Below are positions 5,090-58,068 of a stretch of 64,000 nucleotides of DNA, in pieces. A program made the translations under genes and the position numbers. The stretch lies in NCBI GenBank assembly GCA_029977845.1, contig JAPOKC010000002.1:996-64995 (forward strand), written 5' to 3'. This DNA comes from Mycobacteriaceae bacterium. Lineage in GTDB: Bacteria; Actinomycetota; Actinomycetes; Mycobacteriales; Mycobacteriaceae. Each line of letters starts with the position of its first letter. Position 1 is the stretch's first letter. Below the pieces are notes generated by a model, which worked only from the letters and a program-made list of their open reading frames with translations, ran no database searches and had not been told where the DNA came from.

Positions 5090-5104
5090 GAGAATGTTAT
5101 TCTC
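5090..5104. promoter_or_regulatory. Palindromic operator GAGAAT-N3-ATTCTC (perfect copy)
   Basis: GAGAATGTTATTCTC about 23 bp upstream of the amidohydrolase start; motif recurs at many intergenic regions. Confidence 0.75.
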
Positions 5105-5127
5105 ATTATGGACTAATCGCAATACCC

Positions 5128-7527
5128 TCAACCCGGAGCTGTGCCGATGACCCCCTCGGCGGCCAGTTCGGAGATCTCGGCCTCGCTCAGGCCCAACCCG
5201 GTGAGGACCTCGTGGTTGTGTTGCCCGAGCAGGGGGGCATGCGCGCAGTGATAGCGCGTCGGGCCGCCCGCGCACCGGAACGGCAAGGTGCTGTGCCGCA
5301 CCGGATCGTTGACCGGGTGGGCGACGATCTCGAAGAAGCCCCGCGCCGCCAACTGCTCGAGATCGGGCTGGCGGTGCGGTTGCATGACGATGCCCACCGG
5401 CACCCCGGCCGGCCACAGGGTGGACACGATCTCCTCGGCACTGCGACCCGCGCACCAGCGGGCCAGATGTTCATCGATGCGGTCCGCGTGTGCGCGCCGT
5501 CCCGAGGCGGTGGCCAGTGACGCATCGCGGCCCCAGTCCGGATCGCCGAGTGCGGCGCGCAGTGCGGACCACTGTTGGTCGGTGGCCACCGCGATGGCGA
5601 CCCAGCGGTCTTCGCGACCGAACTCGTCGATCCCCGAGCTCCGGTACAGGTTCTGCGGCGCGGACACCGGGCCGCGGTTACCCGACCGCTGCAGCAGAGC
5701 GCCGTAGGCGGAGTATTCGATGACCTGTTCGGCGGCGATGTTGATGGCGGCATCGACCATCGCCGCCTCCACAAGGGCCCCCCGGCCAGTCCGGCGCCGA
5801 TTCGCGAGTGCGATCAGCACGGCGTTGAGCGCGTGCAGTCCGGCGTTGGGATCACCGATGGTGTACGGCTCGTAGGGATTTCGGTCGGGATACCCGGTGA
5901 GCCAGCTGATTCCGGCGGAAGCCTCGATCACATAGGCGAAGGCCGGGTTGTCCCGCCACGGCCCGTCGAGACCGAATCCCGGCATCCGGAGCATGATCAC
6001 ATCGGGCCGGATCCCTTGCACCGCTGCGTAATCCAGGCCGAGTTGGTCGAGGACCCGCGGGGTGAAATTCTCGGCGACCACATCACAGGTGGCGATCAGA
6101 CGCTTGAGCAGCTCACGTCCGCGTTCGCTCTGCAGATCCAGGGTGATGTCCTTCTTGTTGGTGTTCAGCGCCGAGAAGATCGGCTGCTTCTCCCACCACT
6201 GCTCGACGGTGACGGGAACCCCGCCGATCAACCGGGTCCCGTCCGGGCGACGGGTCGACTCGACGTGGATCACCTCCGCACCCAGCAGAGCCATCGGATG
6301 TGTGCAGGACGGCCCGGCCCAGAACGTCGTCAGGTCCAGGACCCGGACACCTTCCAGCGGTAGCCGGCCGGCAGCGACGCCGGTCGGCATTCGCGGATTC
6401 GGGGTTGCCGTCCGGTACTCCCCGGTGTGCTCGCCCATCCTCGGCGCCGGACCGGCGGGACGCAGCGTCACCCCGGAGATGCGGTAGGGATGGCCCGGTT
6501 GACGGAACCCGGCCGGATTGGCGACGAAGGATCCGCGGTCACGGAAATGATCCAGCGATTCGATGGTCGCCCCGTTGGACACCGGGGCGTTGGGGATGCG
6601 GAATGCGGTCGCCAGTTCCCGGACCTCATCGGCGGGGCGTTGGGCGATCCATGCGTACAGTTCGCCGGCCTTCTCGTTGGCCTGCTGGGTGATCGACAAC
6701 GCCGAACCCTCGTCGATCCAGTCCTCGTGCCCGGTCATCGCACAGAGGTCGAACCACTGCTGGGCGGTGCCGCAACCGATGTCGACCAAGCCGTCGGCGG
6801 CCGATGCGATCCCCGGCACGGTGAGCTTGCGGGCGTCCCGCCACGGCCGGCCGAGCATTTCGAAGTACGTCACCGGGAAATAGGTGAGTCCCATGACATG
6901 GCACTCGAGCATGGAGAGGTCGATCAACTCACCTGCGCCGCAATGTGATCGGCGCATCCATGCGGCCAGCGTGGCGGCACTGGCGTAGCCACCCGACAGA
7001 TAGTCACCGACCTGACCTCCGACATACACCGGAGCGCGGTCCGGGGCGCCACGGCCCAGTCCGACGATTCCGCCGGACCACGCCTGCAGGGTGAACTCGG
7101 TGGCCGCGCGATCACTCCACGGTCCCTCGAGCCCGAACGCGGTGATCGCGGTGATCACGAGGTGGGGGTGGCGCTCGCGCATCATCGCCGGAGAGAACCG
7201 GTCCAGTGCCGCGACGGGCGAGTCCGGCGTCCAGATGACCGCATCGGCGGATCCCAACAGTCGCTCGACGAGGTCGAGATCGGCCTCGCATGCCGGGTCG
7301 GCGAGCACGCTCGCCTTGCCGCCGGCCAGAAACGTGAACAGCGCACCGTCTTCATCGGGGGGGATCACCGCCCCCGACGCAGACCATCGGCGCAGCGGAT
7401 CACCCTGGGGCGCTTCCACTTTGATGATCTCAGCGCCGGCGTCCCCCAGAAGTTTCGTGCAGTATCCACCGGGGATTCCGGTCGAGAGATCGACGACGGT
7501 GAAGTCGATCAGTGGCGGTTCGGCCAC
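5128..7527 (-). CDS. Two-domain type III (CaiB/BaiF) CoA transferase
   Basis: 799 aa with two CaiB repeats (GAEIIKVEAPQGDPLR; PLEGVRVLDLTTFWAGP...GAEVIHVE), each ending APxxGxH. Confidence 0.9.
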   Translation of the reverse strand: MAEPPLIDFTVVDLSTGIPGGYCTKLLGDAGAEIIKVEAPQGDPLRRWSASGAVIPPDEDGALFTFLAGGKASVLADPACEADLDLVERLLGSADAVIWTPDSPVAALDRFSPAMMRERHPHLVITAITAFGLEGPWSDRAATEFTLQAWSGGIVGLGRGAPDRAPVYVGGQVGDYLSGGYASAATLAAWMRRSHCGAGELIDLSMLECHVMGLTYFPVTYFEMLGRPWRDARKLTVPGIASAADGLVDIGCGTAQQWFDLCAMTGHEDWIDEGSALSITQQANEKAGELYAWIAQRPADEVRELATAFRIPNAPVSNGATIESLDHFRDRGSFVANPAGFRQPGHPYRISGVTLRPAGPAPRMGEHTGEYRTATPNPRMPTGVAAGRLPLEGVRVLDLTTFWAGPSCTHPMALLGAEVIHVESTRRPDGTRLIGGVPVTVEQWWEKQPIFSALNTNKKDITLDLQSERGRELLKRLIATCDVVAENFTPRVLDQLGLDYAAVQGIRPDVIMLRMPGFGLDGPWRDNPAFAYVIEASAGISWLTGYPDRNPYEPYTIGDPNAGLHALNAVLIALANRRRTGRGALVEAAMVDAAINIAAEQVIEYSAYGALLQRSGNRGPVSAPQNLYRSSGIDEFGREDRWVAIAVATDQQWSALRAALGDPDWGRDASLATASGRRAHADRIDEHLARWCAGRSAEEIVSTLWPAGVPVGIVMQPHRQPDLEQLAARGFFEIVAHPVNDPVRHSTLPFRCAGGPTRYHCAHAPLLGQHNHEVLTGLGLSEAEISELAAEGVIGTAPG

Positions 7528-7531
7528 CGGG

Positions 7532-8497
7532 TCACTTCTTCTTGTGCTTCTTGCGGCCAGACTTCGACAGTCGCCATTCCGGAGGGAACTTGTCGTCGTT
7601 GTCCTTCACCGCTCCGGACAGACCGGTGTCGAGAGCCTCATGCATGTCCAGGTCGTCCTCGTCGTGGGCGATGGCCGCGCCCATCGACTCGAAGTACCCG
7701 CCCAGCAGGCTGCCCATGTACTCGCCCTGGAACTGTTTCATCACCTCGAAGAAGATCTTCTGCTGAAAGACCGTGTCCGTCGGGCGGTTACGCGCGCATG
7801 CCAGCGCATACTTGGCGACCTCGTCTTCAAGCTGATCGCGGGGTACCACGCTGTTGAGGAAGTTGCACTCGGCCATCTCGGCCGCGGTGAAGGGCCGGCC
7901 GGTGTAGACCATCTCCTGGAACTTGCGGATTCCCATCATCTGGGCCCACCACCACATCCGCGGCCCCCAGCCGTAGTACCGGAACGACGGGTGGCCGAAC
8001 AGCGCGTCGTCGGAGGAGATCACCAGGTCCGCGTCGGCAGCCTGATAGAAGTGCCAGCCGTAGCAGTAGCCCTTGACCTCCAGGATGGAGATCTTCTTGA
8101 AATCCTGCAGGGTGCGGATGCCCGACTGCGGGCTGGCATACCAGGCACTGATGGTGGCGCCGCGCCGAAACGATCCCTTGGGTGGGTATTTGACCTCTCC
8201 GGGCGGAATCCTGAATTCGCCCAGCCGCGGACCTTCGTCCTCGTCGTTCTGCATCTCCATGAACTCGGGCAGATCCGCACCGCTGCCGAGATCCTCGCCC
8301 TCGCCGCGGATCACCAGAACCTTGACCTGATCGTCGACTCCGGCCTGGTACAGCAGATCCGAGTACCGCAACCGGGCCGCTGCGGTGGGCGCGTTGAGAT
8401 ACTCCGGCCGATCGAAGGTGATCGTGGCGATCTTGGTCTTCGGATCCTTCTCGTAACGGATGATCTGCTCGGCGGGGGGACGCTGGCTTTTAGCCAT
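7532..8497 (-). CDS. Crotonase / enoyl-CoA hydratase-fold protein, atypical active site
   Basis: IATITFDRPEYLNA, GSGADL, EVKGYCYGWHFYQAADADLVISSDDALFGHP. Confidence 0.85.
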   Translation of the reverse strand: MAKSQRPPAEQIIRYEKDPKTKIATITFDRPEYLNAPTAAARLRYSDLLYQAGVDDQVKVLVIRGEGEDLGSGADLPEFMEMQNDEDEGPRLGEFRIPPGEVKYPPKGSFRRGATISAWYASPQSGIRTLQDFKKISILEVKGYCYGWHFYQAADADLVISSDDALFGHPSFRYYGWGPRMWWWAQMMGIRKFQEMVYTGRPFTAAEMAECNFLNSVVPRDQLEDEVAKYALACARNRPTDTVFQQKIFFEVMKQFQGEYMGSLLGGYFESMGAAIAHDEDDLDMHEALDTGLSGAVKDNDDKFPPEWRLSKSGRKKHKKK

Positions 8498-12045: not shown

Positions 12046-13266
12046 TCACCAGGTGACCGGCAGTTCGTAGACGCCGTATGCCAACTTGTCGTTCTTGAAC
12101 GCGATGTTGTCGATCGATGTCGCGAGTCGTAACGTGGGCACGCGGCGCAGCAGCGTGCTGAAGACGATCTGCAGTTCGGCCCGGGCGAGCTGCTGTCCGA
12201 CGCACTGATGCCGCCCGTAACCGAAGGCGAGATTGTCATCGGCCTCCGGCCGCCTCAGCTCCAGGTGATCGGGATTCAGGAACTTCTTCGGGTCCCAGTC
12301 GGCCGGAGACAGGTCGATGATCACACCATCTCCGGCTTTGATCACGGTGCCGGCAATCTCGATGTCCTCGGTCGCCACCCGGCGCTGACCGGTGTGGATG
12401 ATGGACAGGTAGCGCAGGAGTTCCTCGACGGCGTTGGCGACGACCGCCGGGTCGTCGGTGTCGCGTAGAACGGCGAGTTGTTCGGGATTCTCCAGCAGCG
12501 CCAGCACACCCAGGCCGATCATGTTGGCTGTCGTCTCGTGACCGGCGAGCAGCAGTCCGCTGGCGAGTTGCGATGCCTCCTTGATGTCGATCTCGCCCGC
12601 CTTGACCCGTTCGGCGAGATCGGAGACCGCATCCTCTGCGGGCTCCTTCATCTTCTGCTCGACCAGGTTCCCGAGGTACCTGGCCAGACTCATGACGCCC
12701 TTCATGGTGTCCTCGGACTTGGCGTACCGGGCCAGACCGACGTTGGCGTGCTCCTGGAAGAACCCGTGATCCTCGTAGGGCACGCCGAGCATCTCGCAGA
12801 TCACCAGCGACGGGACCGGCAATGCCAGGGCACCGACGAGGTCGGCCGGTTTGGGGCCGGCCAGCATCGCGTCGATGTGGTCGTCGGTGATCTTCTGAAT
12901 GGCCGGGCGCAACGCCTCGACTCTTTTGAAGGTGAAGGGCTTGGACAGCATCCGCCGGTAGAACGTGTGCTCCTCGGCGTCGGCGGTGAACACCGACCGA
13001 GGCCGCTTGTCGACGGTGGACAGCATGTGTTCGTTCCAGTGCGGGAAGCCCGGCTTGCGGTCGTCGACACTGATCCGGGAGTCGGCGAACAGTGCGCGCG
13101 CCTCCTCGTAGCCCGTGATCAGCCACGGTGTGCTGCCATCCCAGATCGTCACCCGGCTCAGTGGAGCGGCCGCGGCAAGTTCCATCACCTCCGCCGGCGG
13201 CGCGAAGGGGCAACTGGCCGAGCGCTCCATCGGGTAGGCGTGGGCGACGGTCGCGGTGTCGGTCAC
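12046..13266 (-). CDS. Cytochrome P450 (CYP105-like)
   Basis: AGHETT I-helix, EELLR, heme motif FGYGRHQCVG; N-terminal CPFAPP typical of CYP105. Confidence 0.93.
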   Translation of the reverse strand: MTDTATVAHAYPMERSASCPFAPPAEVMELAAAAPLSRVTIWDGSTPWLITGYEEARALFADSRISVDDRKPGFPHWNEHMLSTVDKRPRSVFTADAEEHTFYRRMLSKPFTFKRVEALRPAIQKITDDHIDAMLAGPKPADLVGALALPVPSLVICEMLGVPYEDHGFFQEHANVGLARYAKSEDTMKGVMSLARYLGNLVEQKMKEPAEDAVSDLAERVKAGEIDIKEASQLASGLLLAGHETTANMIGLGVLALLENPEQLAVLRDTDDPAVVANAVEELLRYLSIIHTGQRRVATEDIEIAGTVIKAGDGVIIDLSPADWDPKKFLNPDHLELRRPEADDNLAFGYGRHQCVGQQLARAELQIVFSTLLRRVPTLRLATSIDNIAFKNDKLAYGVYELPVTW

Positions 13267-13269
13267 GGT

Positions 13270-13464
13270 TCACTCCTCGATCGTGATCGCTAGTGCGGGG
13301 CACGCGGCTGCGGCGGCCCGGACCCGGGCCTCCTGATCGTCCGGTGGCTCGTCGGTCAGCAGGACGACGACGCCGTCCTCGTCGCGCTGGTCGAACACCG
13401 CCGCGGCATTGCGGACGCACTGCCCGGAGGAGACGCAGGCGGCCTGATCGACGACGACTTTCAT
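13270..13464 (-). CDS. [3Fe-4S]-type ferredoxin (CxxSxxC...CP)
   Basis: MKVVVDQAACVSSGQC...ACPALAI; ATG at 13464 overlaps the TetR stop. Confidence 0.9.
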   Translation of the reverse strand: MKVVVDQAACVSSGQCVRNAAAVFDQRDEDGVVVLLTDEPPDDQEARVRAAAAACPALAITIEE

Positions 13465-14126
13465 ATCCCGTCCACCTCCTCGGTGACCGGCGCCAACCAC
13501 AGCCCGATGATCGCGTCGATCAGACCCGACGATGCCGAACCCCAGGTCAGGTTCGGCGAGCGCGTGCGGTCGGCGATGGCACGCTCGTAATGGGCGCAGG
13601 TGTGGATCAGCAGGTTGCGGCCCATGACGTTGCGCTCGGCCCGGACGCGGGTCGGCAGATCTGGCAGACACCGGCTGATGCCCTCGAGAACCGTGACCAG
13701 GGCCGGCAGGGCCAAAGCCCCGGAAGTGATGGTCTGGTAGTAGGCCGGATCGGCCATGACCTGAGCGGCGAAACGGGCGTACCAGGTCGGATTGCCCAGC
13801 GCGGTCAGGTGATCGGTCAACGGAAGGACCAGGGCGCCGACCCAGTCCCGCAACTCCTCCGAATCCCCCATCTCGGCCAGTCGTTGTGCGCGCAGTCGCT
13901 CCACCGGGACGGCGTGCTTGTGCTCGATGGCCCGGACGAGGTCGGTCTTGGTTCCGAAGTGGTACCCGACGGCGGCGTTGTTGCCCTGCCCGGCGGCCTC
14001 GCTGACCTGACGGTTGGACACCGCGTAGACACCGTGTTCGGCGAACAGTCGCTCAGCGGCCGCGAGGATCGCCTCGCGGGTGAGACTGGCCCGGTCGGCC
14101 CGGGTGCCGGTGGTCGCAGCGGTCAT
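13461..14126 (-). CDS. TetR family transcriptional regulator
   Basis: TREAILAAAERLFAEHG...RQVSEAAGQGNNAAVGYHFGTKTDL HTH. Confidence 0.92.
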   Translation of the reverse strand: MTAATTGTRADRASLTREAILAAAERLFAEHGVYAVSNRQVSEAAGQGNNAAVGYHFGTKTDLVRAIEHKHAVPVERLRAQRLAEMGDSEELRDWVGALVLPLTDHLTALGNPTWYARFAAQVMADPAYYQTITSGALALPALVTVLEGISRCLPDLPTRVRAERNVMGRNLLIHTCAHYERAIADRTRSPNLTWGSASSGLIDAIIGLWLAPVTEEVDGI

Positions 14127-14154
14127 CAAGGCCAGTCAACCCCCGACCATTCTT

Positions 14155-14170: not shown

Positions 14171-14983
14171 TTTTCCGGGGCGCGGTTTCCGGCCGACCGG
14201 CCGACCGGCGGCCGTGCCGCCGTCGACGGGCAGCACGGTTCCGGTGACGTACGGCGAGCGGTCGCCGGCGAAGTAGACCGCCACCTCGGCGACGTCCTCG
14301 ATGGTGCCCTCGCGTTCGAGTGGCCGGTCGGCCCGCATCGTCTCGCGGATGCGCGCCTCGAATTCGGCGACGGCTTCGGCGTCCTTGCCGTGCGCCGACG
14401 AGGCGACGATCGCCGTCCTGATGTGGCCGGGCGCGATGCAGTTCACCCGGACCTCGTAGGCCGCCAACTCCACGGCAGCGCATTTGGTGAAGTGGATGAC
14501 CGCTGCCTTGGATGCGCGATAGGTCATCACCCCGCCCCCGGCCTGAATCCCTCCGATGGAGGTGAGATTGATGATCGAACCGCCGCCGTGTTCGGCCATG
14601 TACCGCGCGGCATCGCGCGTGCCCGCCATCACCGCCCGCAGGTTGATCGCCATCACCCGTTCGAAGTCGGCCAGGTCGTCACTGAGAAAGCTCCGATGCA
14701 TCTTCCCTGAGACCCCGGCGTTGTTGACCATGACGTCCAGGCCGCCGTAACGATCGATCGCCGCATCGATCAACCGGCTGAGCTGAACGGTGTCGGCGAC
14801 GTCGGTCGCCAGGAACAACGCCTTCTCGCCGTGCCGATCGGCCAGCTCCGCACCTCGGTCGGAGTCCACGTCACCGAACACCACCGACGCCCCCTCGGCC
14901 AGGAATCGCTCGACGATACCCGCACCGAGACCGGCCGCACCTCCGGTGACCACGGCCACCTTGCCCGCCAGTTCAGCGCTCAT
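14168..14983 (-). CDS. SDR family oxidoreductase
   Basis: TGGAAGLG, NNAG, YRASK. Confidence 0.92.
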   Translation of the reverse strand: MSAELAGKVAVVTGGAAGLGAGIVERFLAEGASVVFGDVDSDRGAELADRHGEKALFLATDVADTVQLSRLIDAAIDRYGGLDVMVNNAGVSGKMHRSFLSDDLADFERVMAINLRAVMAGTRDAARYMAEHGGGSIINLTSIGGIQAGGGVMTYRASKAAVIHFTKCAAVELAAYEVRVNCIAPGHIRTAIVASSAHGKDAEAVAEFEARIRETMRADRPLEREGTIEDVAEVAVYFAGDRSPYVTGTVLPVDGGTAAGRPVGRKPRPGK

Positions 14984-15013
14984 GCCGCAGTTATACCCCT
15001 ACGGCACACTTCG

Positions 15014-15043
15014 TTGACACCCTTGGCGTGAAACTGCCACAGT
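15014..15043 (+). promoter_or_regulatory. SigA-like promoter; probably leaderless P450 transcript
   Basis: TTGACA-18 nt-CACAGT, then 7 nt to GTG start at 15051; no RBS visible. Confidence 0.5.
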
Positions 15044-15050
15044 CATCGGT

Positions 15051-16232
15051 GTGACGGCCCACACCGACAGCACGTTGAGTTACGACCCGTACAACGTCGA
15101 AGTCAACATCAATCCGTTCGCGGTGTTCGCGCGCATCCGCCAAGAGGCGCCGCTCTACTACAACCCTGAGTTCGATTTCTTCGCGCTCAGCCGCTACGAC
15201 GATGTCAACAAGGCACTGATCGACAACGAGACGTTCATCTCCGGCCGTGGGGCGCTGCTGGAGATCATCAAATCGGGAATGGAAATCCCCCCGGGCACAC
15301 TGATATTCGAGGATCCCCCGATCCACACCATCCACCGCAACCTGCTGTCCCGGATGTTCACGCCCCGAAAGATCGCCGCGCTGGAACCTCAGGTCCGTGA
15401 ATTCACCGCGCGTTGCCTCGACCCCCTCATCGGCACCGGCCGCTTCGATTTCGTCAACGACCTCGGCGAGCAGATGCCGATGAATGTGATCGGCATGCTG
15501 CTGGGAATCCCCGAGGAGTTGCAGCGACAGGTCGCCGACCACGGCGAGGCGAGTCTGCAACGGGAGAAGGTCGACTCCTTCTCCTCCGGCGAGGTGTTCG
15601 GCGAACTCATCGACTGGCGAACCAAGCATCCCGCCGACGACATCATGACCGACCTGCTCAACGCGGAGTTCACCGATGAGACCGGCACGGTTCGCCGGCT
15701 GAGCCGCGACGAACTGCTGATGTATCTGACGGTCGTCGCGACCGCGGGCGCGGAGACCACCACCCGATTGATCGGCTGGACGGGAAAGACACTGGCGGAG
15801 CATCCCGATCAGCGCCGCGATCTCGTCGAGAACCCGTCATTGATCCCCCAGACCATTGAGGAGATTCTTCGTTTCGAACCCCCCGCACTGCAGGTCGCCC
15901 GCTATGTCGCGCGCGACGTCGAGTACTACGGCCGGACAGTGCCGGAAGGCTCGGCCATGCTGATGCTGGTCGGTTCGGCCAACCGCGACCATCGCCGGTT
16001 CGCCCCGGACGGCGACGTGTTCGACATCCACCGGGAACAGAAGTCGCACATGACGTTCAGCGCGGGCGCGCACTTCTGTCTGGGTAACGCGCTGGCCCGA
16101 TTGGAGGGCCGGATCGCACTGGAAGAGGTTCTCAAGCGATTCCCCACCTGGGAGGTCGACTGGCCCAATGCGGTGAAGTCCCCGACCACTGCCGTCCGCG
16201 GGTGGCAAGCGATGCCCACCATCGTCTCCTAG
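15051..16232 (+). CDS. Cytochrome P450 (CYP189-like, tentative)
   Basis: AGAETT, EEILR, heme motif FSAGAHFCLG. Confidence 0.92.
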   Translation: MTAHTDSTLSYDPYNVEVNINPFAVFARIRQEAPLYYNPEFDFFALSRYDDVNKALIDNETFISGRGALLEIIKSGMEIPPGTLIFEDPPIHTIHRNLLSRMFTPRKIAALEPQVREFTARCLDPLIGTGRFDFVNDLGEQMPMNVIGMLLGIPEELQRQVADHGEASLQREKVDSFSSGEVFGELIDWRTKHPADDIMTDLLNAEFTDETGTVRRLSRDELLMYLTVVATAGAETTTRLIGWTGKTLAEHPDQRRDLVENPSLIPQTIEEILRFEPPALQVARYVARDVEYYGRTVPEGSAMLMLVGSANRDHRRFAPDGDVFDIHREQKSHMTFSAGAHFCLGNALARLEGRIALEEVLKRFPTWEVDWPNAVKSPTTAVRGWQAMPTIVS

Positions 16233-16255: not shown

Positions 16256-18409
16256 GTGATCGTCCACACCTTCTGCCGGTACTGCCTGGCATCCTGCGGT
16301 GTGGAGGTCGAGGTCACCGACAACCGGGTCGTGAAGATCTCGCCGGACAGGGCGAACCCGCACAGCTGGACCGATTTCTGTGCGAAGGGGCGCACCGCGG
16401 CCGAAGTCGTCGAGCATCCGCGCCGCATTCTGCATCCGATGCGGCGGGTGGACGACGGGTACGTCGAAGCGACCTGGGACGAGGCCGTCGCCGATATCGC
16501 AAGCCGGATGACGGCGATCATCGACGCCGACGGACCTGACGCGATCGCCTCCTACGCCGGCAATCCGGCCGGTTACTCCTCGTCGAGCATCCTGTTCATG
16601 ACCGGATGGCTCGACGCCATCGGAAGCCGAAACCGCTACCACGTCGGCTCGGTGGATCAGAACGCCCTGCACGTGGTGGCCGAATCCATGTACGGCTCGC
16701 AATTGTTCGTTCCGGTATCGGATGTCGACAACTGCGACTACTTCCTGATCGTCGGCGCCAACCCCGCGGTGAGTGCCTGGAACTGGGTCGAATCGGTACC
16801 CGGTGGCTGGAAACGGACCTTGGAACGTCAGCGGTCCGGCGCCACGATTGCGGTCGTCGATCCGATCCGCAGCGAGACCGCCGAGAGGGCCGACGTGCAT
16901 CTGGCGGTCCGCCCGGGACAGGATTGGGCTCTGCTTCTGGGCATGCTGGCGGTGATCCTCAATGAGCGCCGCGAACACCCGGGGGACTGCCGCGACCTGG
17001 TGACGGGAATGTCCGATCTACGGCGCCTGGCCTCCGAGGTTGACCTGGACGACCTGTCTGCGCGGTGTGACATCCCGCGATCCGAGATCGAATCGGTGGC
17101 AAGGGATTTCGCTGCGGCGCCGCGTGCCATGGTGATCACCCGTACCGGGGTCTCATTGCATGCGGCAGGGACGATCGGTGAATGGCTCGGTCACGTTCTC
17201 AACACCATCACCGGGCGAATGGACCGGCCCGGCGGTCGGCGCTACGAGCCCGGTTACGTCGACGCGTTGCGGTTGGCGGCGCTGGCCAAGGCTCCCGACC
17301 ACCGCAGTCGCGTGCAGGGACGTGCGCTGGTCGCCGGCCATCACGGCTTGGACGAACTCCCGGATGAGATCACGACGCCCGGCCCCGGCCGCATCCGCGC
17401 GCTGGTCATCAACGCCGGCAATCCCGTGGTCTCTGGTCCGGACGGCGCGAAACTCGATCATGCTTTGCAACAACTGGACCTCCTGGTCGCTATCGATCTC
17501 GTCCAGCGCGAAAGTCACCGTCACGCGCACTGGCTGTTACCGGCCGTGCACTGGCTTGAGCGCGACGACCTGCTGGCACTGACCAGCGGCCTGCACGACG
17601 AACCGTATGTGCATTTCGGGCGCCGGGCGATCGCGCCGCCGGGGCAGGCCCGCGAGGAATGGCGGTTCTTCCTGGACCTGACCCTGGCGATGAAACGACC
17701 GTTCCTCGGTATCAGAGGGGTCAACCGATTCGTCACGGCGTCGCGGGGCATAGCTCGTGCGACTCGCAGGCCCGGCCTGGAGTTCGGGCCGCACTGGATC
17801 GACCGGCTCATCCTCGCGAGTTCCAGGGGGATCAGTTGGCGGAAGGTCGTGAGCCGCCCGCACGGATGGGTGCTGGGCCCGCGACAGTTCGGCCGCCTGC
17901 GCGGCGCCTTGCGGACACCCGACAAGAAGATTCACGTGGCTCCGCCGGAATTCGTGGCACGGACCCGGGAGTTGCTCGCCGAACCACAACCGGAGGCGCC
18001 GGCCGGTATGCCCTATCTGCTCGGAAACCGCCGGCGGCGCCATTCGATGAACTCGTGGCTCAACGATCTGCCCGGACTTCATCCGTCCGGAAAGGACAAC
18101 CTGTTGCTCATCCATCCTTCAGACGCCTCCTCGCTTGGCATCAGTGACGGTGAGCGCGTCGGGGTGTTCTCCGCTGTGAGTCGGATCGAGGTCACCGCAT
18201 GCCTCAGCGACCGGCCCCGGCCCGGCGTGCTGATCCTCGACCACGGCTGGGGGTCGCGGGTTTTCGATCCGCGCGGCGGCGGGCCGCCGGTGTCGTTCGG
18301 CGTCAACCGGAACCTGCTGGCCGGGGCGGCGCCGCTGGATCCGCTCTCCCAGACACCGGCGCTCAATTCGACGTATGTGGGTATCGAGCGCCTTGCCCGG
18401 GAATCATGA
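16256..18409 (+). CDS. Molybdopterin (bis-MGD, DMSO reductase family) oxidoreductase with N-terminal [4Fe-4S]
   Basis: CRYCLASC...FCAKG, VGANP, VVDP, GNPVVSGPD, C-terminal RRRHSMNSW...IHPSDA domain IV; GTG start 16256. Confidence 0.88.
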   Translation: MIVHTFCRYCLASCGVEVEVTDNRVVKISPDRANPHSWTDFCAKGRTAAEVVEHPRRILHPMRRVDDGYVEATWDEAVADIASRMTAIIDADGPDAIASYAGNPAGYSSSSILFMTGWLDAIGSRNRYHVGSVDQNALHVVAESMYGSQLFVPVSDVDNCDYFLIVGANPAVSAWNWVESVPGGWKRTLERQRSGATIAVVDPIRSETAERADVHLAVRPGQDWALLLGMLAVILNERREHPGDCRDLVTGMSDLRRLASEVDLDDLSARCDIPRSEIESVARDFAAAPRAMVITRTGVSLHAAGTIGEWLGHVLNTITGRMDRPGGRRYEPGYVDALRLAALAKAPDHRSRVQGRALVAGHHGLDELPDEITTPGPGRIRALVINAGNPVVSGPDGAKLDHALQQLDLLVAIDLVQRESHRHAHWLLPAVHWLERDDLLALTSGLHDEPYVHFGRRAIAPPGQAREEWRFFLDLTLAMKRPFLGIRGVNRFVTASRGIARATRRPGLEFGPHWIDRLILASSRGISWRKVVSRPHGWVLGPRQFGRLRGALRTPDKKIHVAPPEFVARTRELLAEPQPEAPAGMPYLLGNRRRRHSMNSWLNDLPGLHPSGKDNLLLIHPSDASSLGISDGERVGVFSAVSRIEVTACLSDRPRPGVLILDHGWGSRVFDPRGGGPPVSFGVNRNLLAGAAPLDPLSQTPALNSTYVGIERLARES

Positions 18410-19228
18410 GCACTCCGCCAGGAACTGCAGCAGCACCGCGTTGACCGCCTCGGGTTGCTCGATCTGCGGGCAGTGACCGGCGTCGGGGATGACGGCGGAC
18501 CGAGCGCCGGTGATACGGCCGGCGATCTGCTCCGCCCACCCGGCCGGCAGCAGTTTGTCGCCGGCCCCCTCGACCAGCAGCACCGGAACAGTGATCCGGT
18601 CGTAGTCACGCGCGCTGGAGGGTGGAGGCGGTGCATCCAGGCCCGGTCGGCGAAATCGCGCTGCCGCCAACGACTCCCACGCTCCCGGAGCGACACTGGC
18701 GTCGTAACGCCGTCGAACGTAGGCGTCGTCGGTCGGATAGGACGGGTCGAGGAACAGTGCCTCGACGATCGCGCGCATCGCCTCCAGGGATGCGTCGTAG
18801 CCGTACAGAGCCGCGGTGTGCCGGTTCTGCTGGATGTCACCACCGCCGCAGATCGCCACCGCGGTGCGCACCGGCAGCACCGGTTTGTTCGCGGTCAGAT
18901 CGGTGAGCAGATTGATCGCGCCCATCGAATTGCCGATGAAGTGAGCTGACTCGACACCCAGCGCTTCGCAGAAGCGTGCGATGTGGCGGATACGGAAACC
19001 GCGGCCGTCGGTGAAGTCCATCACCTTCGCGGAGTCACCGAACCCCAACATGTCCGGCGCCAGGACACGGTACTGCGCGGCAAGCGCCGGAATCGTCTTC
19101 TCCCAGGCGATCTCGGCACCGGCTCCGAATTCGCCGCCGTGCAACAGGACCACCGCTTCACCCTCGCCGGCATCGAGGTAGTGGGTGCTCATCCCATCGA
19201 TCGCGATCGACCGGTGCGTGAGGCTCAT
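18404..19228 (-). CDS. Alpha/beta hydrolase, meta-cleavage-product hydrolase-like
   Basis: LLHGG, FIGNSMGA nucleophile elbow, AGHCPQIE. Confidence 0.88.
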   Translation of the reverse strand: MSLTHRSIAIDGMSTHYLDAGEGEAVVLLHGGEFGAGAEIAWEKTIPALAAQYRVLAPDMLGFGDSAKVMDFTDGRGFRIRHIARFCEALGVESAHFIGNSMGAINLLTDLTANKPVLPVRTAVAICGGGDIQQNRHTAALYGYDASLEAMRAIVEALFLDPSYPTDDAYVRRRYDASVAPGAWESLAAARFRRPGLDAPPPPSSARDYDRITVPVLLVEGAGDKLLPAGWAEQIAGRITGARSAVIPDAGHCPQIEQPEAVNAVLLQFLAECS

Positions 19229-19231
19229 CCG

Positions 19232-20212
19232 CTATTTGATCGCGATCGGGTTGACCGGCGACCCCACGGCCCCGGTGACGCTCAACGGCGGCGCGACGAG
19301 TTGGAACTCGTAGACCCCGTCTGCGGCGCAATCGGCGGCCAGTGCGGTCAGATTCCAGTACTCGCCGAGCATCAACCCGATATCGCGAAGGCACAGCATG
19401 TGCATCGGCAGGATGACGCCGTCGACGCCCGATACCGGATTCTCGACCATCAGATTGTCGGCGGCGACCGCCGCGACCTCATGGTCGTGCAGCCACGACG
19501 CACAGGTCCAGTCCAGACCCGCACCCGGCTCGGATCCATCCCCGGTCTCGAGGAACCGCGCCCACCAACCGGTGTTGACCAGGACGATGTCGCCGCACTC
19601 GATGGCGACGCCCTGCCGCGCGGCGGCGGCGTCGAGTTCGGCGGGTGTGATCGGCGCTCCCAGTGGGCAATAGGTGTCGACACCGCGGAGTCCGACGATG
19701 TCGAGAAGAACCCCGCGCGAGGTGATGCCCTTGTCGATCACCTTCTCGATACCGAGGTGATAGGCGCCGAGACTGGTCACCGAATCGGCCGGAAAACCGT
19801 TGTACAGCTTGTCCTCGTAATACACGTGGGACAACGCATCCCATTGGGTGGCGGCCTGCAACGGCATGATGATCATGTCGTCGTTGAATCGCATCGGTCC
19901 GGCTTCGGAGTACCCACCCAGTTGCACCGCTGCCGGATTGCGCAGCCACGGCGGCCCGTACTTCATCAGGGTGTGGGCGTCCCCGCCGTCGATGGTCATG
20001 ACGTGCATGGGATTGCTGCGGTACTTGAACGCGCCCTGCGGACCCGAGGAACCGAAGTCCACGCCGAGCGGAAAAATCCTGCCGTGCCGGACCAGCGAGG
20101 CAGCCTGCTGCACCTTCGCTGCGGTGATGAAGTTCAGCGTGCCGAGTTCGTCGTCATCCCCCCACCGTCCCCAGTTACTGACGTCGGCGGCGACACGGCG
20201 CACATCGCTCAT
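19232..20212 (-). CDS. Cyclase / kynurenine formamidase-fold metallohydrolase
   Basis: NWGRWGDDDELGTLNF, QAATQWDALSH, SRGVLLD, GAVGSPVNPIAIK. Confidence 0.87.
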   Translation of the reverse strand: MSDVRRVAADVSNWGRWGDDDELGTLNFITAAKVQQAASLVRHGRIFPLGVDFGSSGPQGAFKYRSNPMHVMTIDGGDAHTLMKYGPPWLRNPAAVQLGGYSEAGPMRFNDDMIIMPLQAATQWDALSHVYYEDKLYNGFPADSVTSLGAYHLGIEKVIDKGITSRGVLLDIVGLRGVDTYCPLGAPITPAELDAAAARQGVAIECGDIVLVNTGWWARFLETGDGSEPGAGLDWTCASWLHDHEVAAVAADNLMVENPVSGVDGVILPMHMLCLRDIGLMLGEYWNLTALAADCAADGVYEFQLVAPPLSVTGAVGSPVNPIAIK

Positions 20213-21039
20213 ATCTGCCACAGGTCGGCTCCTTTCGTGAATTCCGCCGACTGGCGGGCGGCCAGGGCTCCGCCGTCGACCCAGATGACCTGTCCGGTGA
20301 TGTAACCGGCAGCGGGACTGGCGAGGAAGGCCAGCACCGCCGCCTGTTCATCGGGATCGGACACCCGCCCCAACGGTTTGTCGATGGTGTCGAGGAAACC
20401 CTGCCCGTAGGCCGATCGCAGCTGCTCGAGGATCGGGGTCTCGGTGACTCCCGGTCCGGTGCAGTTGATGCGGATACCGCGGGCGGCCAGGTGCTCGGCG
20501 TGGCAGACGGTGTAGGCGATGAGCGCTTCCTTCGACAGCCGGTATCCGCCGTCGGCGAGGGCGTCGGGATGTCGTTCGCACCAGCGGATGCCGTCGGCCA
20601 TCGAGGTGGTCGCCAGGAGCCCGGCGACCTCGTCCCGGTGCTCGCGGTAGGCCGAACCGGCCAGTGAGGCCACGCTGACGATGGACGACCCGGTCGTCAT
20701 CAGTGGCAAAACCGACTCGGTGAGATGGCGCGTGCCGAGGAAGTTGATCCGGACCACCAGCATCGGATTCCCGATACCCGAGGACACCCCGGCGACGTTG
20801 AACAACGCGTCGACGCGCGGGCCGAGTGAACCCGCCGCCCGGTCGATCGAATCCGGATCGGCGAGATCGACCGCGATGAATTCACCGATGGGTTGGTTCG
20901 GCGTGATCCGGTCGAGCCCGACGACGTCGGCCCCCAAGTCGGCGAGTTGCGCGCACAGCTGCGCACCGATGCCCGAGGCACAGCCGGTGACCACGACACG
21001 TTTGTCGTCATACCGCAGGAGATCACCGACGCGGCGCAT
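20209..21039 (-). CDS. SDR (coniferyl-alcohol / 3-alpha-hydroxysteroid dehydrogenase-like)
   Basis: VTGCASGIG, FNVAGVS, YRLSK, PGVTETPIL. Confidence 0.87.
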   Translation of the reverse strand: MRRVGDLLRYDDKRVVVTGCASGIGAQLCAQLADLGADVVGLDRITPNQPIGEFIAVDLADPDSIDRAAGSLGPRVDALFNVAGVSSGIGNPMLVVRINFLGTRHLTESVLPLMTTGSSIVSVASLAGSAYREHRDEVAGLLATTSMADGIRWCERHPDALADGGYRLSKEALIAYTVCHAEHLAARGIRINCTGPGVTETPILEQLRSAYGQGFLDTIDKPLGRVSDPDEQAAVLAFLASPAAGYITGQVIWVDGGALAARQSAEFTKGADLWQI

Positions 21040-22347
21040 TCAGACGGCTTCCCGCTCCTCCTTGAGGCGCTGCGCGGCCTGGACCCGGCCCTCGTTGATC
21101 TCGGCCATCGCCTCCGGAATCTCGCCGGCGGTGAAGCTTCCGCCGCGCCCGGTCGGCAGGCCGCCGAAGTTGTAGTTCTCGTCGAAGTCGGGCGCAGTGC
21201 TCTCGACACGGCGGCCCTCGACCTTCTCGATCACCGGTGCCAGGCGCTTGGCCTTCGCGGCGACGGCTTTGGCATCCCGTTCGATGAACTCGGGCAGAAT
21301 CTCTTTGCCCATGATCTCGATGGACTCCATGGTGCCCTCGTGGCTGCGCGGGTTGATCAGCAGGATGATCTCGTCAACACCGCTCTCCTCGTAGCCCCGC
21401 AGGAATTCCCGCACGGTCTCCGGTGACCCGATCGCACCGCGGCCGGGACCGTAGGCGAGCGTCGGATCCTCCTTGACCGCCTCCTCGTAGCGCTCCCACA
21501 CCTTGGTGCGGCCCGGGGTGTGCATACCGGTCAGGTAGTAGTGCATGATCCCGAACGAGAAGAATCCGCCGCCGATGCCGAGTCGCTTCAGCGCTTCGTC
21601 GTCGGTCTTGGCGACCATCATGGAAAGGTCCCCGCCGATGGCCAGAATGTTCGGGTTGATCGCCGGCGTCACCGGGGCACCGGCGGCCTCGAACTCGTCG
21701 TAGTAGCCCTTGACCCGCTCCGCCAGCGGACCCGGACCGGTGTAGGCGAAACTCAGTGCGCCGATCGCCTTCTGGGCAGCCATCTGAACCGATGACGGAC
21801 GTGTGCACGCGACCCACACCGGCGGATGCGGCTTCTGCAACGGCTTGGGGATCACGTTGCGGGCCGGCATCTCGATGTGCTCACCCTTGAATCCGGTGAA
21901 AGGCGTCTCGACCATCGCGCGGATCGACACCTCCAGCGCCTCTTCCCACTGTGAGCGCTTGTCGGCCGGATCGATGTTGAACCCGCCGAGTTCGGCCACC
22001 GAGGATCCCTCACCGGTGCCGAATTCCACCCTGCCGTTGGAGAGGTGATCCAGTGTCGCGACGCGCTCGGCGATCCGTGCCGGATGGTTGATCGACGGCG
22101 GCAGGTGCATCACGCCGAAGCCCAGGCGGATGTCCTTGGTGCGCTGACTCGCCGCGGCGAGGAACATCTCGGGAGCGGTCGAGTGGCAGTACTCCTCCAG
22201 GAAGTGGTGTTCGGTGAGCCAGACCGTGGAGAAGCCCGCCTTGTCGGCGGCCTCGACCTCGTCGAGCCCGTCCTGGAACAGCCTGTGTTCGTCATCGTCG
22301 CTCCACGGCCGCGGCAGCGGGAACTCGTAGAACAGTGAGATTTTCAC
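21040..22347 (-). CDS. Luciferase-like (LLM) flavin-dependent oxidoreductase/monooxygenase
   Basis: WLTEHHF, AERVATLDHLSNGRVEFGTG, PKPLQKPHPPVW. Confidence 0.9.
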   Translation of the reverse strand: MKISLFYEFPLPRPWSDDDEHRLFQDGLDEVEAADKAGFSTVWLTEHHFLEEYCHSTAPEMFLAAASQRTKDIRLGFGVMHLPPSINHPARIAERVATLDHLSNGRVEFGTGEGSSVAELGGFNIDPADKRSQWEEALEVSIRAMVETPFTGFKGEHIEMPARNVIPKPLQKPHPPVWVACTRPSSVQMAAQKAIGALSFAYTGPGPLAERVKGYYDEFEAAGAPVTPAINPNILAIGGDLSMMVAKTDDEALKRLGIGGGFFSFGIMHYYLTGMHTPGRTKVWERYEEAVKEDPTLAYGPGRGAIGSPETVREFLRGYEESGVDEIILLINPRSHEGTMESIEIMGKEILPEFIERDAKAVAAKAKRLAPVIEKVEGRRVESTAPDFDENYNFGGLPTGRGGSFTAGEIPEAMAEINEGRVQAAQRLKEEREAV

Positions 22348-24113
22348 GTGGTACCTCCAGTGCGATACGTGGAATTGTCGCCGACTTCACTTGTCATGTC
22401 ACGCGTTTGCCGCTGAGCGATGTGCTTAGCCGCGATGTAGCCGAACGTCATGGCCGGCCCGATGGTCGCGCCTGCGCCGGCGTAGCTGCGCCCCATGACT
22501 GCCGCCGAGGTGTTGCCCACCGCGTAGAGGCCCTCGATCACGGTGTCGTCGCCGCGCAGCACCCGCGCGTGTTCATCGGTGCGCAGGCCGCCCGAGGTGC
22601 CCAGATCGCCGAGGATGATCTGGAATGCCAGATACGGAGGCGTCGTCAGTGGGTGCAGATTGGGATTGGGCAGGGTGGGGTCGCCGTAGTAGTTGTCATA
22701 GACGCTGTCGCCGCGATTGAAGTCGTCGTCGTGCCCGTTGCGCGCCAACTCGTTGAACCGCTCGGCCGTCGCCCGCAGGTTCGCCGGGGGCACCCCGATC
22801 TCGCCGGCCAACTCCTCCAGTGTCGCTGCTCGTTTGACGACACCGGAGTCCAGCCAGGCCTGCGGTACGGCGCGCCCGGTGGGCACCGGCGCACCCGGAA
22901 TCCGCGGCAACGGGAGGTGCCCGGCGACGACGTAGCGGTGGAATGATCCGGTGTCGGTGATGAGCCAGCACGGAATGTGGCTGATGCCGCTGCGTTGACC
23001 GGCGATCATCGCGTGCGCGAAATCCATGTAGGGGGCGGCCTCGTTGATGAAGCGGCGGCCCTCGCCGTTGACGACGAACTGCGACGGCATCATCCGTTCG
23101 TTGAGCATGAACTGCAACCTGCCGTCCGGCCAGCAGATCGCCGGAAACCACCACGCCTCGTCGAGCAGATCGGTCGACGCCCCGATCTTCTCGCCGGCCC
23201 GGATGCCGTCACCGGTGGCCACCGGGTTGCCGAAACTCCAGTCGTGGTTCAACTCGGGCAGATACTCGCGGCGCCAGGTCATATCGTGATCGAAACCGCC
23301 GGAGGCGAGGATCACACCGTGGCGCGCACCGATGCGGTGCTGTCGCCCGGATCGCTCGACCACCGCCCCGACCACGGCTCCGTCGATATCGGTGATCAAC
23401 TCGGTCATTGGTGCGTCGAGCCACAGTGGGATGTTCTGCTCCTTCATCGCCAGCCGAAGCCGGGCGGCCAGTGACTGGCCGATCGCCGCGATCCGTTCGC
23501 CGAAAACGTGCGCACGGAACTTGCGCCACAGCAGTTTGACCAGAACGGCCTTACCGCGCCAGTTCTGCCGGACCTGATAGAAGAACCGAAGATCCTTGGG
23601 GCCCAACCAGATTCCCTTCGGCGCGAGGGCCAGCGGCGTCAGAAGGTTCTTCTCCTCGGCACCGAGGACACGCAGGTCGATCGGCGGGACGTTGATGGTG
23701 CTGCCCTGCTCGGATCCACCCGGAAGCTCCGGGTAGTAGTCGGCATAGCCGGGCTTCCAGACGAACTCCAGCCAATCGCTGAGCTGCTCCAGAAAGACCA
23801 TCATCGCCGGCGCGTTGTCCACGTAGGCGCTGATCCGCTCGTCGCTCACCAGACCGGCCGTGATCTGTTTCAGATAACGCTTGACCCCCTCGGGGTCCGG
23901 GACATAACCGTCGCGCTTCTGCGCCGGGGCACCCGGTACCCAGATGCCGCCGCCGGACAGAGCGGTGGATCCGCCGAACTGAGCGGCCTTCTCGACCACC
24001 AGGGTGTCCAGGCCGGACGCGTGGGCGGTCAGCGCGGCGGTCATCCCCCCGCCACCGGATCCGATCACCAACACATCGACACACGTGTCGAACGTCTCCG
24101 CGCCAGTGCCCAT
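22344..24113 (-). CDS. 3-ketosteroid-delta1-dehydrogenase-like FAD oxidoreductase
   Basis: IGSGGGG, GGSTALSGGGIW, YADYYPE, EAAPYMDF, GLYAVGN, RSYAGAGATIGP. Confidence 0.85.
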   Translation of the reverse strand: MGTGAETFDTCVDVLVIGSGGGGMTAALTAHASGLDTLVVEKAAQFGGSTALSGGGIWVPGAPAQKRDGYVPDPEGVKRYLKQITAGLVSDERISAYVDNAPAMMVFLEQLSDWLEFVWKPGYADYYPELPGGSEQGSTINVPPIDLRVLGAEEKNLLTPLALAPKGIWLGPKDLRFFYQVRQNWRGKAVLVKLLWRKFRAHVFGERIAAIGQSLAARLRLAMKEQNIPLWLDAPMTELITDIDGAVVGAVVERSGRQHRIGARHGVILASGGFDHDMTWRREYLPELNHDWSFGNPVATGDGIRAGEKIGASTDLLDEAWWFPAICWPDGRLQFMLNERMMPSQFVVNGEGRRFINEAAPYMDFAHAMIAGQRSGISHIPCWLITDTGSFHRYVVAGHLPLPRIPGAPVPTGRAVPQAWLDSGVVKRAATLEELAGEIGVPPANLRATAERFNELARNGHDDDFNRGDSVYDNYYGDPTLPNPNLHPLTTPPYLAFQIILGDLGTSGGLRTDEHARVLRGDDTVIEGLYAVGNTSAAVMGRSYAGAGATIGPAMTFGYIAAKHIAQRQTRDMTSEVGDNSTYRTGGTT

Positions 24114-24126
24114 CACGCGGCCCCCA

Positions 24127-27525: not shown

Positions 27526-27604
27526 CTGGTGACCTTCCTATGGATTGGCGGACCTATTTTCCTAAGCGGTCTGTGTAATTCCGCCCGGAATATGACCCGT
27601 TTCG

Positions 27605-27729: not shown

Positions 27730-27750
27730 GTACACGTAATTCGACGTCAC

Positions 27751-35742: not shown

Positions 35743-35745
35743 CGT

Positions 35746-35795
35746 GGCGATGCTATTCTCCATCAGCGAGAATGCCAATATCGGAAATGGAGAAC
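35746..35795. promoter_or_regulatory. Array of three operator copies at 22 bp pitch in a divergent promoter
   Basis: GGCGATGCTATTCTC (35746), GAGAATGCCAATATC (35768), half-site GAGAAC (35790). Confidence 0.65.
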
Positions 35796-38700: not shown

Positions 38701-38715
38701 GGTAACCGAATTCTC
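38701..38715. promoter_or_regulatory. Degenerate operator copy in a divergent promoter
   Basis: GGTAACCGAATTCTC. Confidence 0.45.
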
Positions 38716-39450: not shown

Positions 39451-39498
39451 CGGAATGTTATTCTCGGCAGAGAGAACGGTCCGCCGGCAGGGGAGAAA
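39451..39498. promoter_or_regulatory. Operator copy plus two half-sites at 21 bp pitch
   Basis: CGGAATGTTATTCTC (39451), GAGAAC (39472), GAGAAA (39493). Confidence 0.65.
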
Positions 39499-52183: not shown

Positions 52184-52242
52184 GATAATCACGTTCTCTT
52201 CTGCAGCGAATCTTACGATCGCCACCGGAGAATACAGGTTCG
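52184..52242. promoter_or_regulatory. Three operator copies at 22 bp pitch upstream of the aldh-CoA transferase-mce operon
   Basis: GATAATCACGTTCTC (52184), GCGAATCTTACGATC (52206), GAGAATACAGGTTCG (52228). Confidence 0.6.
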
Positions 52243-52350: not shown

Positions 52351-52386
52351 GAGAGTAGCGTTCTCACATCGGAAAGGGAGATTCTT
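52351..52386. promoter_or_regulatory. Two operator copies at 21 bp pitch upstream of the SDR-SDR-fdx-P450 operon
   Basis: GAGAGTAGCGTTCTC (52351), GAAAGGGAGATTCTT (52372). Confidence 0.6.
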
Positions 52387-52419
52387 GCAAACTGGGATCG
52401 ACAGCAGCGGGTGCTGCCA

Positions 52420-53121
52420 ATGAGGACCGCTGTGGTCACCGGTGGAGGTTCGGGTATCGGAGCCGCCGTGGTCACCAGACTCCGCCAGGACGGTCACCGG
52501 GTGGCCATTCTCGACCTGAACCCCGTCGAGGACGAGATGTCCTACGTCGCCGATGTGACCGACCGCTCCCAGATCGACGCGGCCCTGGACGAGATCCGGG
52601 CCGCCCACGGCCCGGTGACGATCCTGGTCAATGCCGCCGGCCGTGACCACTTCAAGCGGTTCACAGATATCTCCTTCGCCGATTGGCAGAAGATCATCGA
52701 CATCAACCTGCACGGGGTCTTCCACACCATTCAGGCGGCGCTGCCCGACATGATCGAGGCCGGGTGGGGCCGTATCGTCAACATCTCGTCCTCGAGCACC
52801 CACTCCGGTGTGCCGTACATGTCGGCCTATGTCGCGGCCAAGTCCGGAGTCAACGGACTGACCAAATGTCTTGCGCTGGAATACGGTCGGGCAGGCATCA
52901 CGGTCAACGCAGTGCCGCCCGGTTTCATCGACACACCGATGCTGCGCAAGGCAGAATCGCGTGGCAACCTCGGTTCCATCGACGATTCGATCAAACAGAC
53001 GCCGGTCGGCCGGATGGGTAAACCCGAGGACATCGCCGCCGCCGTCGCGTTCTTCGCCTCCGAGGAAGCCGGCTACATCACCGGCCAGATACTCGGTGTC
53101 AACGGCGGACGGAACACCTGA
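52420..53121 (+). CDS. SDR family oxidoreductase (2-hydroxycyclohexanecarboxyl-CoA dehydrogenase/FabG-like)
   Basis: TGGGSGIG, NAAG, YVAAK; start re-chosen at ATG 52420. Confidence 0.9.
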   Translation: MRTAVVTGGGSGIGAAVVTRLRQDGHRVAILDLNPVEDEMSYVADVTDRSQIDAALDEIRAAHGPVTILVNAAGRDHFKRFTDISFADWQKIIDINLHGVFHTIQAALPDMIEAGWGRIVNISSSSTHSGVPYMSAYVAAKSGVNGLTKCLALEYGRAGITVNAVPPGFIDTPMLRKAESRGNLGSIDDSIKQTPVGRMGKPEDIAAAVAFFASEEAGYITGQILGVNGGRNT

Positions 53122-57894: not shown

Positions 57895-57929
57895 TTACGC
57901 CCCTTCTCATCCGGGTCCGCCACCAGCTG

Positions 57930-57965
57930 GGAAATGCCATTCTCAAAAGCGGTGTTCAGGTTCTC
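57930..57965. promoter_or_regulatory. Two operator copies at 21 bp pitch upstream of the ACAD pair
   Basis: GGAAATGCCATTCTC (57930), GGTGTTCAGGTTCTC (57951). Confidence 0.6.
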
Positions 57966-58028
57966 CGCTGCTAGTAGCGCACTCTACCGGCCTTTTCGGC
58001 CGCGGGACAGAGCGGGTTGCGGCAACGT

Positions 58029-58068
58029 GGTAACCACGTTCTACTATGACGAGGAGAACGTAATTCTT
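58029..58068. promoter_or_regulatory. Two operator copies upstream of the amidohydrolase-Rieske operon
   Basis: GGTAACCACGTTCTA (58029), GAGAACGTAATTCTT (58054). Confidence 0.6.

Follow-up and report, generated by a model that had tools for sequence, protein, structure and literature searches.

FadR-type TetR proteins, known from Thermus and Bacillus, repress fatty-acid degradation genes until acyl-CoA binds, and the mycobacterial repressor KstR2 (Rv3557c) responds to a CoA thioester. The motif of KstR2 is AnCAAGnnCTTGnT (PMC3068626), and that of KstR (Rv3574) is a 14-bp sequence, TnnAACnnGTTnnA, with an even 2-nt centre (PMC1995591). BkaR (Rv2506) is a TetR that regulates its own gene; it has a pair of palindromes in that promoter and additional sites at the operons it targets (PMC3920632). 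The environmental mycobacterium Mycolicibacterium neoaurum has a further TetR-type repressor, KstR3 (Mn_4965), which is linked to sterol side-chain genes; its gene has thiolase, DUF35 and acyl-CoA dehydrogenase (ACAD) genes as neighbours and lies between hflX and lexA. Deletion of KstR3 altered four neighbouring genes only, and the paper gives no operator (PMC10398937). Here we analysed a 64,000-nt stretch of a Mycobacteriaceae bacterium genome (the window; positions 996-64995 of contig C76, JAPOKC010000002.1), in which an earlier note, made from the sequence alone, had picked out the palindrome GAGAAT-N3-ATTCTC as the operator of a catabolic gene cluster. The window covers part of a large uncharacterised island of lipid- or terpenoid-like breakdown and Mce-uptake genes of non-tuberculous mycobacteria. 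We find that the palindrome is a genuine, strongly conserved putative repressor-binding site which ties much of this island together, that its regulator is very probably a TetR-family protein, and that a candidate for this regulator, which we call TetR-A, is encoded 19 kb past the end of the window.

To judge the motif against chance, we used 100 dinucleotide shuffles of the window. Both perfect copies claimed before, at 5090 and 34179, were found (0 expected). When up to two mismatches were allowed, there were 8 matches (at 5090, 34179, 35768, 39451, 52184, 52351, 57930 and 58054) vs 1.1 expected, a count reached in 0 of the 100 shuffles. All eight were intergenic, in a window with 4.4% intergenic DNA, and lay 8-37 nt from start codons, as the placement near gene starts described in the earlier note would have it; the gene list behind these distances is hand-made from open reading frame (ORF) calls based on third-position GC content and from Pfam, with crude start-codon calls. 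Of the near copies that had been listed, those at 35768, 39451, 52184, 52351, 57930 and 58054 stood, with two mismatches each. The rest did not: they carry three (35746, 38701), four (52206, 52372), five (35790, 52228, 57951, 58029) or six mismatches (39472, 39493) and, except for 58029, consist of one good half-site each rather than a full copy. Such secondary elements with four to six mismatches, together with the higher AT content of intergenic relative to coding DNA, are what could be said for the matches being chance likeness. For the primary sites this explanation is refuted by the shuffles, by a reversed control pattern that is nearly absent from 151 genomes (one match in one genome, against matches of the real pattern in 124 of the 151) and by the retention of sites at orthologous positions, and we give it practically no weight.

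The distribution of the motif over the genome points the same way. Contig C76 measures 130 kb, or 4.7% of a 2.79-Mb assembly that is 73% complete, and it holds all five perfect copies of the assembly (those past the window end are at C76:78185, 86737 and 92282) and 14 of the 37 matches at up to two mismatches; outside C76, match density was at or under chance. Among 24 genomes of the same genus, 20 had 2-10 perfect copies and the reversed control pattern was absent. Perfect copies were found in 0 of 16 genomes from other families of the order, and a genome taken as M. tuberculosis for its 16 IS6110-primer sites had no site even at one mismatch. Complete genomes show the copies clustered in a stretch of about 150 kb. 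Alignment of 224 sites revealed invariant 6-nt arms and a 3-nt centre that is free except for a preferred A at position 7 and T at position 9, an architecture that fits a TetR dimer. At orthologous promoters the half-sites are kept while spacers and flanks vary. The regulon is present in about 5/6 of the Mycobacterium species sampled and in several related genera. The earlier note had named beforehand the observations on which its proposal would turn; the motif proved enriched and was kept in orthologs, and no described match to it was found.

The earlier note had suspected that the regulator may lie outside the window, and this is where the candidate was found. TetR-A (C76:83984-84652) has a TetR_N domain (PF00440), and its promoter contains a 19-bp perfect palindrome, GCGAGAAC-GAA-GTTCTCGC, followed 21 bp further by a second site. 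When one genome per species was scanned, more than 580 relatives came up, and the best 80, from 80 genomes, were examined. In 79 of these best 80 orthologs a palindrome with at most one mismatch keeps a constant position, -158 or -109, relative to the conserved PAWKQRA codons. The 80 include M. kyorinense, M. persicum, M. wolinskyi, M. vanbaalenii and Gordonia hankookensis; the same promoter layout recurs in three further genera, and TetR-A orthologs were found in 8 of the 33 family genera that were sampled. We also scored the co-occurrence of gene and motif in 150 genomes of the genus that were at least 90% complete. Where the TetR was present, the motif was present in 121 genomes and absent from 4; where the TetR was absent, the motif was present in 2 and absent from 23. 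We consider it likely, judging from these sequence patterns, that TetR-A is the homodimeric repressor that reads GAGAAT-N3-ATTCTC and controls the island by promoter occlusion, with release by a ligand.

Several points weigh against this reading. Co-occurrence alone cannot tell TetR-A from other island genes, and the genomes compared are related rather than independent samples. G085, G107, G142 and G157 are the four genomes with the TetR and without a perfect palindrome, and G049 (91% complete) has seven palindromes and no TetR hit; the former may use a diverged operator, and the latter may have an assembly gap. For most species, some 75-100 nt separate the main operators from a candidate leaderless TetR promoter downstream of them (TACAGT-N6-ATG), so that autoregulation there may run through another promoter, or the operators may serve the divergent gene. 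In the source genome, the spacer of the ring-cleavage operon (operon, 18404-27525; spacer, 27525-27800) offers a best match with four mismatches, and the operator centres at 34179 and 39451 are not -10-like in the direction of the gene. The discriminating evidence is the fixed operator at TetR-A's own promoter.

The same evidence bears on whether the palindrome is a real operator read by another island regulator, such as the TetR encoded at 13461-14129 in the window, with TetR-A merely a target. In M. wolinskyi, M. persicum and M. kyorinense the site-rich islands encode orthologs of this protein at about 67% identity, co-occurrence does not discriminate island genes, and a repressor need not autoregulate. 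Against it, three genomes had no site in front of 13461-14129 or its orthologs, and Gordonia has a motif cluster together with a 71%-identical TetR-A ortholog, whereas its relatives of 13461-14129 are 41-47% identical and all lie outside the cluster. The operator fixed at 79 of the best 80 TetR-A promoters is moreover the classic signature of an autoregulated TetR, and we regard another island regulator as an unlikely reader. The second TetR of the window (30396-31031) was considered as well and fits worse, its ortholog being missing or 31-36% identical in genomes with 6-7 sites. Separately, a second TetR gene of G. hankookensis (C2:68206-68787), whose product is 36% identical to that of 30396-31031, is preceded, about 90 bp away, by a perfect palindrome (68877-68891), and the regulon may thus include a subordinate TetR. 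With TetR-A retained as the probable reader, we examined its predicted structure. The AlphaFold2 model (pLDDT 85.7) is all-helical, with 10 helices in a TetR fold, and its top PDB matches are all TetRs; the nearest are EthR2/Rv0078 and acyl-CoA-binding FadRs, with template modeling (TM) scores of 0.66-0.76 at 15-22% identity, a weak hint from the model at a CoA-ester inducer such as the acyl-CoA suggested in the earlier note. None of the four TetRs of the contig matched an NCBIfam equivalog; a PDB sequence search gave remote TetRs only, and a large protein database gave generic names only.

Some further features of the TetR-A locus were observed. Three of the four genomes with the TetR and without the perfect palindrome have the lowest-scoring orthologs. 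Most species have one TetR-A-type gene; the source genome has two full genes and a fragment, the paralog (C76:97010-97654) being 66% identical and the fragment lying at C36:1-369. The promoter of the paralog contains only a degenerate site, GAGAATCAACTTCGG, and no upstream ORF (uORF). Upstream of the TetR-A orthologs, 73 of 85 loci have a small ORF starting with ATG, which in 67 of them has 12 codons (L039-L118, L185-L187). In most cases TACAGT-N6 stands directly before this ORF, an arrangement of the leaderless type, and in 73 of 73 cases its TGA stop shares bases with the start of the TetR gene (ATGA or GTGA); its length is kept across genera while the peptide diverges (MFSPIGKHPSRR, MFATNESARIRP). 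In the source genome the small ORF (C76:83955-83987) has 10 codons, and the second operator contains its -10 hexamer, TAATCT, 7 nt ahead of the uORF ATG.

Turning to the individual operators of the window, several overlap or abut recognizable promoter elements. In the divergent spacer between a FadD gene (34204-35738, minus strand) and an enoyl-CoA hydratase (ECH) gene (35802-36518, plus strand) lies a composite double operator, GGCGATGCTATTCTC-N7-GAGAATGCCAATATC (35746-35782), with centres 22 bp apart and perfect inner half-sites. The pattern GATGyTATTCTC-N7-GAGAATGCCAATAyC is kept in this spacer in 16 of 17 species, while the 7-nt linker and the flanks vary. The left operator contains TAGCAT 7 nt before the FadD ATG, a placement which suggests that the FadD transcript is probably leaderless, and CAATAT before the Shine-Dalgarno (SD) sequence of ECH is a candidate promoter element. 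As side observations, the FadD start is probably the ATG at 35738 rather than the TTG of the longest ORF at 35778 (region 35738-35760), and a second FadD-type operator, GAGAATGCCAATACC, lies at C76:96674.

At the promoter of an aldehyde dehydrogenase (ALDH) gene, the operator GATAATCACGTTCTC (52184-52198) lies 14 nt upstream of the start at 52169, and GATAATnnnATTCTC is kept at this promoter in island copies of about 11 species. The operator probably controls the ALDH-CoA-transferase-yrbEAB-mceA-F unit (52169 to 40044, minus strand). No site was found upstream of yrbEA in three genomes, so that control of mce would run through the ALDH promoter. On the minus strand at 52206-52242 are a putative -10 box, TAAGAT, and a putative -35 box, TTGAAT, each overlapping a half-site-like hexamer; the bottom strand of relatives reads TTGAAT-N16-TAAGAT, the source genome having TGTATT and TAAGAT in the same places, and the block GGCGAATCTTACATTCG...GAGAATTCAAGAAA is conserved in 11 species. 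The supposed copies at 52206 and 52228 are therefore better read as the boxes of a leftward ALDH promoter, with the operator just downstream, than as operator copies.

On the other side of the same spacer, which has one site near each gene in island copies, the operator GAGAGTAGCGTTCTC (52351-52365) is predicted to control a uORF (52385-52423) and then two short-chain dehydrogenase/reductase (SDR) genes and a cytochrome P450 gene (52423 to 55609, plus strand). Its centre, TAGCGT, is compatible with a -10 hexamer and lies 18 nt downstream of a conserved TTGCg box. The sequence GAGAGTAnnGTTCTC is kept in 16 island loci and in 0 of 8 paralogous SDR loci outside the island. The uORF (52385-52426 with its stop) was observed in 16 of 16 island loci; it has 11-13 codons, often begins MTET, has its own SD sequence (AAGGGAG) and overlaps the SDR start at 52423 with its stop, and what had been listed as a copy at 52372 is its SD region. 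Further along, the two-mismatch operator GAGAACGTAATTCTT (58054-58068) precedes an amidohydrolase pair and NuoF-like operon (about 58100 to beyond 63452, plus strand); GAGAAnnnnATTCTTGC is kept there in two other genomes, G024 and G009, in which ATTCTTGC overlaps a TTGC -35 box, followed by TACACT.

The overlap with promoter elements at the SDR, 58054, ALDH and FadD operators, whose centres often read TAnnnT, points to repression by promoter occlusion. It could also be taken to mean that the hexamers are themselves -10/-35-like boxes of a shared promoter class, perhaps of an alternative sigma factor, with the pitch of the repeats reflecting -35/-10 spacing; the TAnnnT centres, the coincidence of the ALDH "copies" with TTGAAT-N16-TAAGAT and the -35 overlap at 58054 would all suit this. 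A strict dyad with an unconstrained 3-nt centre, present on both strands regardless of gene direction, suits a dimeric helix-turn-helix protein and not a sigma factor; in addition, sites lie anywhere from 8 to 37 nt away from the start codon and the motif tracks one TetR gene over 150 genomes. We thus hold a promoter-class origin to be quite improbable, and repressor binding the better account.

The remaining operators head other units. The perfect operator GAGAATGTTATTCTC (5090-5104) lies 23 nt upstream of the ATG at 5067 of an amidohydrolase_2 gene (3877-5067, minus strand), the head of an operon with acyl-CoA ligase genes (Pfam); orthologs of this gene have a perfect site at -37 in the source genome, G024 and G009, with a different 3-nt centre in each. 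The other perfect operator, GAGAATAGCATTCTC (34179-34193), is 24 nt upstream of the ATG (34155) of an APH-like kinase, first in an APH-SDR-ACAD-TetR-alcohol dehydrogenase unit (34155 to 29425, minus strand; Pfam), and G024 and G009, which differ in gene order here, have no site in front of their APH orthologs. The two-mismatch operator CGGAATGTTATTCTC (39451-39465) lies 37 nt upstream of the ATG at 39503 of a small protein gene near the end of the mce operon, with two-mismatch sites at the equivalent position in G024 and G009. Another, GGAAATGCCATTCTC (57930-57944), lies 35 nt upstream of an ACAD pair (57894 to 55722, minus strand), and the orthologous position is occupied by the perfect GAGAATGCTATTCTC in G024 and G009. 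A weak and uncertain candidate site, GGTAACCGAATTCTC (38701-38715), has three mismatches and a perfect right half; a one-mismatch site is found upstream of its ortholog in G009 and none in G024.

The earlier note had also described arrays repeating every 21-22 bp, at most multi-copy sites. When half-sites with at most one mismatch were counted around the 14 primary C76 sites, offset 21 occurred six times and offset 22 four times, other offsets from 12 to 80 occurring 0-2 times each; hence the spacing is real. In five genera a further palindrome, GAnAGT-N3-AnTCTC, lies 21-22 bp from the main one at the TetR-A promoter. Among 144 other strong sites drawn from 80 species, however, a partner at four mismatches or fewer was seen at only about 10, and the ALDH partners coincide with -10/-35 boxes, so that double operators, at FadD/ECH and at the regulator promoter, are a feature of some promoters only and elsewhere the repeats are single half-sites. 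At these promoters cooperative same-face binding of two dimers is plausible from the spacing. One could go further and picture a graded circuit of mostly single operators, with cooperative two-dimer units at the TetR and FadD/ECH promoters and with TetR translation coupled to the 12-codon leaderless uORF, as an undescribed control of an orphan Mce importer and of a terpenoid- or steroid-like pathway found in most non-tuberculous mycobacteria and missing from M. tuberculosis; we put this forward tentatively, as possible and nearer to doubtful than to probable. If it were true, the TetR would be a ready-made biosensor for the pathway substrate.

The genes of the window include acyl-CoA ligases, CoA-transferases, enoyl-CoA hydratases and acyl-CoA dehydrogenases (Pfam), along with four P450s, several Amidohydro_2 proteins, KstD-like flavoproteins, a ring-cleavage block of MhpA, MhpB and hydrolase type, two TetRs and a yrbE2-mce6 importer. 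By predicted operon structure, about 35 of some 56 window genes sit behind an operator. The earlier proposal that one repressor controls uptake, oxygenases and beta-oxidation together is supported in that one dimeric repressor site joins mce uptake, oxygenase and beta-oxidation genes in one predicted regulon. Calling the operator cluster-wide was too broad, as no site occurs within 5128-29428 (about 23 kb, ring-cleavage operon included) in this genome, and a search of the site-free spacers 13240-13480, 14960-15080 and 27500-27820 for other palindromes returned none. Unlike the source genome, G024 and G009 have an operator at -39 in the spacers of their ring-cleavage operons, and its lack in the source genome looks like lineage-specific rewiring.

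Beyond the observed enrichment, placement, conservation and TetR linkage, we infer protein binding, repression, a ligand and cooperativity, which would act together as follows. Without ligand, TetR-A would occupy operators that overlap or abut the -35, the -10 or the +1 position at no fewer than nine window promoters, which have short leaders or none, and the bound repressor would bar RNA polymerase. Under its control would be two acyl-CoA ligase operons, an enoyl-CoA hydratase-P450 unit, the ALDH-CoA-transferase-yrbE-mce operon, the SDR-SDR-P450 unit, the acyl-CoA dehydrogenase pair and the amidohydrolase/NuoF-like oxygenase operon, and TetR-A would also repress its own gene. At its own promoter and at FadD/ECH, the second, weaker operator 21-22 bp off would hold a second dimer on the same face of the DNA. 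Binding of a pathway substrate or intermediate, which may be a CoA thioester, to the C-terminal domain would release the repressor and so switch on uptake and catabolism together. With the operator, a large conserved catabolic regulon can be delimited from sequence; it comprises an orphan Mce transporter, several P450s and unusual "amidohydrolase" oxygenase candidates. Together with the likely TetR, the operator also makes the Mce cargo and the island substrate testable questions.

Among described systems, KstR of Mycobacterium and Rhodococcus is the closest in design, as it is likewise an autoregulated TetR with a short palindrome spread across a lipid/steroid cluster that includes an mce operon, and its half-site AGAAC resembles the AGAAT/AGAAC seen here. 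The motif described here differs in being 15 bp long with an odd 3-nt centre. In the window the KstR pattern has two matches (26687 and 61586), both intragenic, a number that 4 of 100 shuffles reach. TetR-A is not KstR itself: neither it nor the window TetRs gave a hit to NF033703, the NCBIfam model for KstR, and the paralog scored 20 bits against a cutoff of 280. KstR2 is similar in being a TetR repressor that acts through a palindromic operator on a sub-regulon of steroid-ring catabolism. Its pattern has no exact match in the window and two with one mismatch (54917 and 58719), both intragenic and at chance level, so the earlier view that the motif matches neither the KstR nor the KstR2 motif held up; the KstR2 structure 4W97 is a distant fold match to the TetR-A model, with a TM score of about 0.5. 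KstR3 was considered for the thiolase and DUF35 genes that the loci share. Its termini, as read from cloning primers, are MTAADTE... and ...VAGRD (PMC10398937), whereas TetR-A orthologs read ...EEPAWKQRA... and end ...CSxGFAxx; the genomic context differs too, and this identity was rejected. Neither window TetR matches KstR3. BkaR differs in its core, GTTAnT-N4-AnTAAC, and in its small branched-chain keto-acid regulon. The FadR-type TetRs of Thermus and Bacillus and EthR2/Rv0078 are the nearest solved folds, with operators different from the one here. The motif was not found in print in the literature searched, the comparison covering described motifs given as text. Taken together, the operator and its regulon appear undescribed and yet of a well-known regulatory kind, the principle itself being textbook.

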